Assembly (NCBI GenBank): GCA_044892525.1
Contig: CM097885.1
Span: forward strand, 30,568,001-30,632,000
Source: Schmidtea polychroa
Lineage: Eukaryota
DNA length: 64,000 nt
Direction of reading: 5' to 3'
In this document: one piece after another, positions 41,101-44,100 of the stretch
Layout: each line of letters starts with the position of its first letter
How positions within the stretch are numbered: position 1 is the first letter of the stretch
The notes under the pieces: model-generated
Seen by the model: only the letters and a program-made list of their open reading frames with translations
The model's database searches: none
What the model was told of the DNA's origin: nothing
Made by a program: the position numbers and the translations under genes

Positions 41101-44100
41101 GTTTTTTACGATAAATTTGTATTTATTATACGTTAACGTAATTTCCTTGGATATTTATTCATTTATTATAGAGATAAAATTTAATTTTCTATAAAATGGA
41201 TTGATCTAGAGTTTAAAATGTTGTATTATTTTATTACTTTGTTGCAATATTTTTATAATCTTATAACAATTTTTTTAAATATTTTACATCTGGTGAAATA
41301 TTTCCGAAATATGTTATTACTTTGTTGTAATTTACTTAAAGACTTCACAATTTATTACAATATTCTTTTTAATTTGTTGTCCGTCTTCGAAATAATGTAT
41401 TGATTTGTCCCAATTACCATCATTATTTTATTACTTTGTTGCAATATTTTTATTATTTTAGTTACAATTTGAGTAATATTTTACAACTTTGTTGAAATTT
41501 TCTGAAATATGTTACTACTTTGTTGTAATATTTTCTAATCTTGTTACAATTTGCTTAAATATTTTACAACTGTTGAAAATTTATCTGAAATATGTTATTA
41601 CTTTGTTACAGTTTTATGAAAAACGTTATTAATGTTTTGCAATTTGATGAAAAATGATATTACTTTCTGGGTTCATCACATTATTTTTATTAAATTATTA
41701 TGAAAATGTTAAATAAGTCAACTTTAGCGTCAAAATGTGTTTTAAAATATATTGAAGTTTTAAAATACTGCAACGTAATGCATTTATTTTTCCTACCCCT
41801 TCCTTGATTTTGATTGGTCAGAATTTAATCATGTGTAATATATAAGCAGTAACTTTTCAAATGTTTGTCATTTAAACTTTTAATTTAACTTATATAAGTG
41901 AATAATTTTTTATTCTCTATCTAATATTAATGATTAATTTCTTTTAGTGAACGGATGCAGTTTATATAAATTTTGTATTGCCGAAAGTCATGAAGATGTT
42001 GAGAACTGTAAATCAGTTACATCATCATATTTCAAGATAAATGACTCTGCCTTATCGGGTTACATATGCCCGGAATGTCTCATTATAACACCAGGTAGGT
42101 GGTTAATGTTTGTACGACAACACGGACACCATCTTAGAAGATTCGAAGAAACGAAGAGCAGGATGATTACTAAAAGTAATACTGTTTCTACTATTAACAA
42201 TTATTAATTTTTTTATAGTACAATCGAAAATGAATATATCATACGATCCTAAGCAGATTAAAGAATATGTTACAAGTTATGTTATTTAAGTTGTTTAATA
42301 TTAATTATAAATATAGTTAGACAAAACTCTGGCACCACAAAACGAAAGTCAATATTTTACGGAAATGGAGACTCTAACATACAATTGTGTCCACGTCGGG
42401 AGTCTGACTTAAATGGTTCTCGTGTTGAATTGACAAGCGATGTATCTGCAATTAATTCTCCTGACATTGTTGTTCCAGATTATCTCATCAAAGAAATAGA
42501 AGATCATATTCAACGAATGGGGACAGTAAAAATCCAATTTGGACTTTGTGCAGAGTTTATCAAAGAGGATGGTGAAATTAAAAAAATGGTGTTTGTCGAA
42601 TAAAGCAATTACAATGTCATCTTCATTTATTAATGATGGAATTGAAAAATTAAAAGAAAAGTTGGAGAAATACACTCAACAAAGTAGTGGGTGGAGAATT
42701 CATAAAATATTAGAAGTTACTATGATTTTAACTAAATTATCAGACATAATACATGTATCTGGTAAGATTATTTACATTATTATATATATAAATCAAGATA
42801 TTTACTTAGGTTCAAGTTACATTAAAACGCCAAATTACCTGAAAAACTGTCAGGCTTTAGTTAATGTTCAAAACAATGATCAATTCTGTTTTTTATATAG
42901 CATACTAGCCGTGTTACGTTATGATGATATACGTCGGGATAGAGAAAGAACAACAAAATATAACTTAAATGGTAATATATATATATATATATATATATAT
43001 TTATAAATGTCATAAACCATTGAATTTTTTGTTTTTAAGACTTAAAATGGAAATTTGAATGGTTTCCGATGAAGTTGGTTAACATTTGCCAATTTGAAGC
43101 AATGAATCCAAATCTAGCGATCAATGTTCTCAAATATAATAAAGATCCAATTAAACAAAAAACTAATGATATTTTCAAGAATCCGTTCGTTGACTTGGTA
43201 TATAGAAGTACTTCGACGGGATCTCAAATATATCTCTTATTGATTGAAGAAGGTAATATTTATATTAATCATTAAAATATTAACTAAATTTTAGAATTAA
43301 ATTATCATTTTTTGGCTGTAACTAATCTCGATCGACTGCTGAATTACAGAGATAGAGTAGAAGGAGTCAGAATCCAATCACATTGGTGTCATACATGTCT
43401 TCATGGGTTTCAAAAACGTCCTGCTTTTGAAAGACATATAGGTCTTTGTAGGAAGAATGTGGAGCGTACGACTCTATACTCAATGCCAGAGAATAAATAT
43501 ATCGAATTTAAAGACTGGGGTAAAACTATAAAACAGCAGCTTGTTGTCTACGCGGACTTTGAATCGATATTACCTCTAGATGACAAACACTTCCAAAAAC
43601 ATGAGCCGATTGCATCTGAATTTGTGCTTCTTCATCAAGGTTGTCCGATCCGAAATGAAACATTTGTTGGGAAAAACTGTATCATTCAGGTCATACAAGC
43701 ATTGGATGATATAGCTACAGACATAGTTTATCCGTGGTATAAAATTAATGGATCAAAGGAAATGATGGAACTCACTTGGGAACAGCAGGAAGAATTCACG
43801 ACTCAAACTCATTGCTACCTTTGTAAAAAGATTATCAATATACCTGTTCGAGATCATGATCATTTTAATGATCAATATCTCGGAGCAGCGTGTCAAGATT
43901 GTAATTTGGCTAAAAGAATCAATCCGTCTTTACCTGTTGTATTTCATAATCTTCGTGGATATGACATTCATCATATATTAAAATATGCAATTGGAAAATT
44001 CCCCGATTGGAATTTAATTGTTATTCCTCAATCAACAGAAAAGTTTCTCACACTTACAGCGACATCGAAAGGCAGAATAATTAGATTCATTGATTCTTTA

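Follow-up and report, generated by a model that had tools for sequence, protein, structure and literature searches.

Polinton core genes are described as free of introns; the initial annotation of this locus had it that their pPolB genes are usually described as single long ORFs. Intact vertebrate Mavericks have none (available text of PMC8097293), the core genes of nematode Mavericks are intronless, with introns in cargo only (10.1101/2022.07.12.499685, in the part available), and, as far as the accessible portion of PMC8547959 goes, Cafeteria EMALE genes are without them. The available sections of other papers report introners inside dinoflagellate polinton-like elements (PMC11957031), group I introns in some PLVs (PMC12220804) and spliced pTP and pol mRNAs in adenoviruses (PMC11304566). 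Term searches of the available text of PMC8502044 and 10.1101/2023.08.22.554363 gave no relevant mention; the accessible portions of PMC6431247 and 10.64898/2026.07.28.741278 hold nothing further on Polinton introns; and a literature search found no report of spliceosomal introns in an animal Polinton pPolB, most subscription journals, Repbase reports and bioRxiv supplements lying outside its scope. Since core genes are described as intron-free and are called as single ORFs in surveys, spliced members are under-counted and their N-termini mis-called. The annotation had argued that ORF-based searches miss split forms, and this is borne out: the best of 72 protein matches to the gene considered here is only 57% identical.

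That gene, from an element we call B, is compact, exists in hundreds of young copies and has relatives that differ by the exact presence of introns. It therefore lets intron loss be tested directly against parallel gain – and this in a replicon without a reverse transcriptase of its own.

A polymerase gene in a palindromic Polinton derivative

The window (the whole 64,000-nt stretch analysed) comes from an AT-rich genome of 781 Mb that has four very large contigs (the window is C1:30568001-30632000). It holds two PF03175 genes, belonging to elements A (29.0-33.4 kb) and B (41.9-45.9 kb). Exons for BACK and Kelch domains lie at 8.2, 39.1 and 48.0 kb, with an additional exon-like stretch at 37.8 kb; they indicate an animal host, perhaps a flatworm, and their order suggests that both elements are apparently within introns of a host Kelch gene. 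The features on which the analysis draws are listed below, where i0 to i5 are the GT-AG segments of the B gene.

29009..33383, + strand: pPolB of element A (comparator); three leader introns (29040-29071, 29129-29174, 29238-29446), all in phase 1; no interruption at i3-i5
39446..39497, + strand: small intron of the host Kelch gene, 52 nt (size comparator)
40421..46622, + strand: element B, window copy; one arm and centre, mirror arm missing; right end ...ACTACT at 46622
40458..40809, no strand: central spacer of B, bounded by AGTAG...CTACT; ~85% similar to the ends of the non-coding palindrome at 14189-26785
41812..41897, + strand: putative promoter: GATTGG box (41812), two TATA-like motifs (41839, 41891)
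41898..41947, + strand: i0, GT-AG segment of 50 nt in phase 1 that would split the start codon; GT and AG in 29/29 other copies
41948..42175, + strand: exon 1, 228 nt, Cys/His zinc-finger-like region
42176..42218, + strand: i1, 43 nt here, phase 1
42219..42275, + strand: exon 2, 57 nt, the least certain exon; may be part of a single 141-nt intron
42276..42316, + strand: i2, 41 nt, phase 1, weak GTTATG donor
42317..42761, + strand: exon 3, terminal-protein-like domain D1; frameshifted in the window copy
42762..42809, + strand: i3, 48 nt, phase 1, in the linker between terminal-protein and vOTU domains
42810..42971, + strand: exon 4, 162 nt, carries the invariant vOTU-type Cys; pN/pS 0.15
42972..43039, + strand: i4, 68 nt here, phase 1; family B only
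43040..43252, + strand: exon 5, 213 nt
43253..43294, + strand: i5, 42 nt, phase 1, shortly ahead of the invariant vOTU-type His
43295..45900, + strand: last exon, completes vOTU and encodes exonuclease and polymerase (PF03175), intron-free; end approximate

Several other elements were noticed alongside these. Element A spans 12391-34627 between inverted ends AGTAGGTAG...CTACCTACT, and nested in it is a 12.6-kb near-perfect non-coding palindrome (14189-26785) with AGTAGGG ends and, low-complexity stretches apart, no long ORF. The genome is very rich in A-type pPolB (9515 first-look candidates, a count shared with related families), mostly as head-to-head pairs. A ~780-bp element with B-like AGTAGT ends (58049-58824) and a small palindrome with an AGTAGT-type left end (60553-62343) look like MITE-like derivatives. 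Downstream of the last Kelch exon is a lone TBP fragment (48774-49091), ~51% identical to Polinton TBP; two further regions (9085-9447 and 59564-59881) weakly match a mariner HTH domain and a fragment of a reverse transcriptase. In full Polintons of the genome a small TBP gene is found (L082, L100, L113), and family D has a Bcl-2-family gene.

The arm of the window copy is ~88-95% like the arm of six paired B elements, and the centre matches too. Most B genes sit in head-to-head pairs, and the six pairs examined are palindromes of 11.1-13.8 kb in which the inverted repeat covers the whole arm: main arm blocks are 96-100% identical within a palindrome, and different elements are ~2-5% apart in the gene region. 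All six have AG...CT / (AGT)2 ends (AGTAGT-type) and a 6-bp target duplication. A tblastn search found no integrase inside these six elements or the window copy, and no packaging ATPase, Ulp1 protease, jelly-roll capsid or TBP gene was detected inside B elements, whose three short central ORFs (111-165 aa) fell outside the Pfam scan. Genes for rve, A32, Ulp1 and jelly-roll proteins are found at other loci of the same genome, with integrase in families A' and C. The B polymerase itself scores above the cut-off for the protein-primed family B (PF03175). B is a pPolB-only palindrome with Polinton ends: it works like a Polinton polymerase module and does not belong among complete Polintons. As a non-autonomous derivative it numbers roughly 300 elements (614 arms), its palindrome probably made by fold-back copying and integrated in trans. 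At one locus (L065-L066, C1:221844-221848 kb) a B palindrome has a capsid gene and an integrase-like gene ~1 kb away, having probably inserted into a full Polinton.

The five GT-AG introns of 43, 41, 48, 68 and 42 bp claimed for this gene are all present in the window at those sizes; a sixth, i0, upstream of the start then assumed, had been missed. Together the six fall in the 5' third of the gene. That all are in phase 1 is true of the B introns as modelled. GC content is 0.10-0.16 in i1-i5 vs 0.26-0.37 in the exons, and a scan of 41890-43300 for GT..AG segments of 38-70 nt with GC of at most 0.17 returned only the six places i0-i5; neither the 2.4-kb polymerase exon nor element A's 3.9-kb ORF has a single one. 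A branch-point motif (YTRAY) is present in 4/6 B introns, and at no usable distance in either host-side comparator. A size match to two small introns of the Kelch gene, 47 and 52 bp, had been put forward: the 52-nt intron stands, but the 47-nt candidate (4488-4534) has no established tie to that gene.

Two parts of the map admit more than one reading. The i1/i2 region is a variable linker with 63 possible stop-free GT/GC-AG paths, one of them a single 141-nt intron; because of these paths and the weak donor of i2, the boundaries of i1 and i2 are not unique. At the 5' end, i0 probably splits the start codon, a placement that fits because relatives start M(x)N..C at the same place. The TATA-like motif directly before the i0 donor allows another reading: if the motif at 41891 is a real TATA box, then i0 cannot be an intron. 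The promoter-like stretch is also present in four diverged copies.

Placement of the introns relative to protein domains was read from a predicted model of an intron-less homologue (L125, residues 100-470; pLDDT 83). The model has a first alpha/beta domain with a Ser-Gly loop (near-invariant Ser-x-Trp) before the last strand, a predicted fold that fits the topology of the D1 terminal-protein domain given in the available text of 10.1101/2024.03.18.585575. Beyond the D1-like domain, B homologues have an invariant Cys and His, as in vOTU; a sequence search for an OTU among solved structures gave no match. On the model, the linker joining the two domains is where i3 falls; the second domain contains i4, and i5 precedes the His by three codons.

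Splice sites and reading frame across B copies

Splice sites and reading frame were compared in 29 other B loci, of which six are mirror arms (23 remain once these are removed). The donor GT is intact at all six sites in 29/29, and the acceptor AG in 29/29 at every site but i4 (28/29); the segments are thus neither non-GT-AG insertions nor private to the window copy. Four more diverged copies also have GT and AG intact at all six sites, and a fifth (L120) is too decayed for alignment at i0-i2 and i5. Internal exon lengths are near-fixed multiples of three (228, 57, 444, 162 and 213, with single-copy exceptions). Intron length varies more at i4, where a TA microsatellite gives 43-92 nt in other copies (11 different lengths, 43-76 nt, among the 23 loci). 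Since i1 is 42 nt in 27/29 other copies, its 43 nt is peculiar to the window copy, as are the 68 nt of i4.

Keeping i1, i2 or i5 introduces a stop in 29/29 copies, and keeping i4 a stop or a frameshift in 29/29; with i3 kept, the frame is still open in 21/29. Variants common to at least three B copies are mostly synonymous, and in the spliced frame only: pN/pS for exon 4 is 0.15 there vs 1.51 and 1.09 in the shifted frames, and the values for exon 5 (few variants) and the last exon are 0.39 and 0.20. Read from these variants, purifying selection is seen in the spliced frame only. In many copies the last exon is open over ~870 codons. The window copy itself is dead, with premature stops at 44176-44178 and 45394-45396, a frameshift near 45700 and another in exon 3.

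It had been stated that removing the introns of the conserved region restores colinearity with the uninterrupted protein of element A. Without i3, i4 and i5 the B protein aligns gap-free to 21 uninterrupted homologues (element A and 20 database proteins) and to five other families of the genome; A is uninterrupted in this region only, having three phase-1 leader introns of its own. The six GT-AG segments are likely spliceosomal introns that the host removes.

No run recorded as RNA covers the stretch. Transcript evidence was sought in contigs of four runs guessed as RNA, which may be DNA: no spliced joint was found there at any B intron. Contigs of runs X1, X2 and X4, none on record as RNA, span i1 and/or i2 unspliced, and as the X1 contigs include the upstream non-coding part too, the runs may be DNA and are taken neither as support for splicing nor as evidence against it. 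Copies that had lost an intron were sought for i3 alone. A search by exact flanks finds i3 in 614 genomic arms, and one for B copies with a 0-30-nt gap in its place gave 0 matches; with no i3-less or partly i3-less copy, loss is not caught in the act.

Introns in other families and in environmental relatives

Interruption of Polinton genes extends beyond B. Interruptions occur in pPolB of families B, A, C, D, E and F and in the A' integrase, whereas the core genes of Polintons are described as intron-free. In families A, A', C, D and E nothing interrupts the gene at i3-i5. An acceptor immediately ahead of the first zinc-finger motif, some three codons away from i0, is common to A, A', C, D and F; identity of i0 with the third leader intron of A was rejected on account of that distance. 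Small leader introns occur in A, E and F. The first leader intron of A (29040-29071) is 32 nt in the window vs 44, 56 or 68 nt in 18 other covered copies, a difference in 12-nt steps. The integrase of A' has a 42-nt phase-1 intron that family C is without. An 11-nt direct repeat spans its two junctions (L113:2400-2700, minus strand), as expected for gain by duplication of splice-site-like sequence.

Environmental relatives were sampled as 80 metagenome loci listed of 459 matches; P0012-P0014 are protein records alone, and viral contigs gave just two distant relatives. Two environmental contigs, L127 and L133, ~46-55% identical to B, have GT-AG phase-1 introns of 43-48 nt exactly at i3 and i5; i4 is absent from both. 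L138 and L145 open on a phase-1 acceptor at the i5 site, and in L139 and L147 the first intron lies no more than about one codon from i1. The sister group of B (L125/P0011, L126 and L129) lacks i3 and i5 with no indel, and L125, L126 and L129 have no introns in the coding region. The sister group of L127 (L132, L128, L139 and L147) likewise lacks i3 and i5 with no indel. These four keep 5' introns, and so are unspliced DNA though i3 and i5 are absent; in L132, where i1, i3 and i5 are all missing, this is a 45-nt 5'-UTR GC-AG candidate. No intron was found in the polymerase exon of these B-clade lineages. Over the region, 55 of 82 loci gave one alignment, and 52 of those 55 are stop-free there. 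Breaks near i3 in L104 and L107 proved to be frameshifts and not introns. Among distant loci that are split or stop-bearing, L149, L191, L199 and L200 showed no intron where inspected; L169, L173 and L205 were outside the inspection. Small GC-AG intron candidates in pPolB leaders are seen at L106:3498-3544 and L132:271-315, and L128:130-469 has three 66-nt phase-1 leader exons, two of them near-duplicates, with 46-50-nt introns between.

All 29 modelled introns of the clade are in phase 1: six in B, three in A, one in the A' integrase, three in E, four in L127, two in L133, three each in L139 and L147, and four in L128. They amount to ~20 distinct sites, picked by eye and open frame, and are non-independent (L128 has two duplicate leader exons). 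From composition, the expected phase-1 share is 0.26-0.54 per site, too low for ~20 distinct sites if codon composition (protosplice) bias were the sole cause, an explanation that we rejected. The five homology-fixed sites (i3, i4, i5, the zinc-finger junction and the integrase intron) are all in phase 1, for which the chance is ~0.03 if the upper share is used. The bias is probably real, with exon duplication accounting for part of it, and raises the question of why every modelled intron of the clade is in phase 1. One answer, which we consider unlikely, is a viral splicing code, these Polintons then being DNA viruses in which introns would be kept, lost and regained under selection, with cDNA recombination editing a DNA-only replicon and in-frame isoforms as the product. 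Isoforms come to mind because every intron is in phase 1, i3 lies at the terminal-protein/vOTU linker and i5 at the protease end. One promoter could then give the complete protein, a polymerase lacking the terminal protein, and a fusion of terminal protein and polymerase that lacks the protease. Splicing would thereby reach the split that in adenoviruses has become permanent.

Gain, loss and known systems

The initial annotation held that this lineage has been gaining introns with nothing to purge them, and proposed that intron positions be mapped on a pPolB tree; neither the sites nor the tree bear it out. In the polymerase tree (trees are quick searches) B is sister to the intron-less L126/L129/P0011 (SH-aLRT 98), L127 is sister to the L132 group without i3 and i5 (100), and L133 with L138 forms a third branch (99). 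The tree of the N-terminal block recovers the same groupings, with lower support for B (88), and a short-block tree leaves the sister relation of B unresolved. As the N-terminal groupings equal those of the polymerase, recombination of blocks was rejected as the source of the shared intron sites. Forcing B, L127, L133 and L138 into one clade lowers the log-likelihood by 117 units (p-AU 8e-7; test on the first 400 residues of 20 rows, with the group picked by intron state after the tree was viewed). A single clade of i5-bearing rows is rejected. The tree then calls either for three separate gains, each hitting the same two nucleotides, or for a single gain with about four losses, all of them precise.

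What the tree and the copies say of each history can be set out together. If all introns had been gained one way on the branch of B, in a replicon whose DNA-only replication cannot purge them, then i3-i5 should be missing elsewhere, and they are indeed absent in the nearest relatives of B and in the other five families of the genome, i4 being private to B. However, i3, i5 and probably i1 stand at the same sites in non-sister lineages, so gain without purging could account for i3 and i5 only in combination with parallel gain, and we regard it as very unlikely. Parallel gain on its own – real introns, with i3 and i5 acquired independently two or three times and no loss required, through insertion hot spots or because an intron is favoured at the terminal-protein/vOTU linker (i3) and before the catalytic His (i5) – is a possibility, though not a strong one. 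Unweighted parsimony prefers it (three steps, vs five for one gain and about four losses), all lineages outside the B-clade are without i3 and i5 (52 of the 55 single-alignment metagenome loci stop-free, among the matches listed), and i4 and the A' integrase intron, absent in C, are evidence that introns are gained. Yet the same pair of nucleotide positions, within ~750 nt, would have to recur each time, i1 is likewise common to a different branch (L139, L147), and the intron sequences show no introner-like family. An introner origin of the B introns was itself rejected for want of family likeness: among 15 pairs, the score of the best was reached by 4/200 shuffles.

The proposal that the segments are not spliced at all, and are instead AT-rich insertions that helper functions passively spread within a gene which is dead or read through, is the least probable, and very unlikely. 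The window copy is broken, i3 is stop-free in frame in 21/29 copies, and the contigs of the four runs guessed as RNA, which may be DNA, hold no RNA joint; against this, GT and AG are invariant, retention of i1, i2, i4 or i5 gives stops or frameshifts, selection is seen in the spliced frame, many copies keep the ~870-codon exon open, and environmental relatives carry introns at the same sites. We lean, modestly, towards a history in which most B introns are old introns of a wider viral clade, precisely lost in sister lineages, with i4 (perhaps i0) likely new: i4, and perhaps i0, looks like a gain private to B. Intron loss by cDNA recombination is expected to proceed from the 3' side, and the pattern among lineages is nested, some keeping only the more 5' introns and none having any in the polymerase exon. 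It is the recurring i3/i5 pair, i1 on another branch and this nested pattern that favour old gain with 3'-side loss.

Under old gain with loss, host RNA polymerase II would transcribe B in the nucleus, and the transcript would be spliced to an mRNA for zinc finger, terminal protein, vOTU and polymerase. The polymerase would copy the palindromic element, and integrase may be supplied in trans by full Polintons of the same genome, as the 6-bp target duplications suggest. Occasionally, spliced cDNA made by a host reverse transcriptase would recombine with element DNA, stripping introns from the 3' side and leaving lineages with 5' introns only or none. Leader introns may also multiply by duplication of phase-1 exon-intron units, the duplicated exons being those of L128.

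Among known systems, the snap-back or copy-back defective genomes of DNA viruses mirror an end and its adjacent gene around a short centre and require a helper; B differs from them in being integrated, in hundreds of copies, with target duplications. With animal Polintons/Mavericks (adintoviruses) it shares the PF03175 polymerase, a predicted D1-like alpha/beta domain, followed by Cys and His, that compares with the available text of 10.1101/2024.03.18.585575, and (AGT)2 ends and 6-bp target duplications that match the account in the accessible part of PMC8097293; it differs in being a whole-element palindrome without integrase, ATPase, protease or capsid gene. The adenovirus E2B products pTP and Ad-pol likewise serve as protein-primed replication proteins, made from spliced mRNAs with common 5' exons, and for adenovirus IVa2 splicing is reported to create the start codon (PMC11304566, available text). 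According to the sources available, however, the adenoviruses join leaders to separate pTP and pol ORFs through long introns, whereas B has 40-70-nt, host-sized introns within one fused ORF of an integrated element. The dinoflagellate maverick-polinton-like introners, as B, place spliceosomal introns in polinton-like elements; they are mobile, repeated intron families, mostly acquired after integration (PMC11957031, in the part available). The six B introns, by contrast, are not clearly alike, are fixed in the family and share their positions with lineages ~50% identical: intron sites common to B and its distant relatives, together with evidence for their loss, are what is new here.
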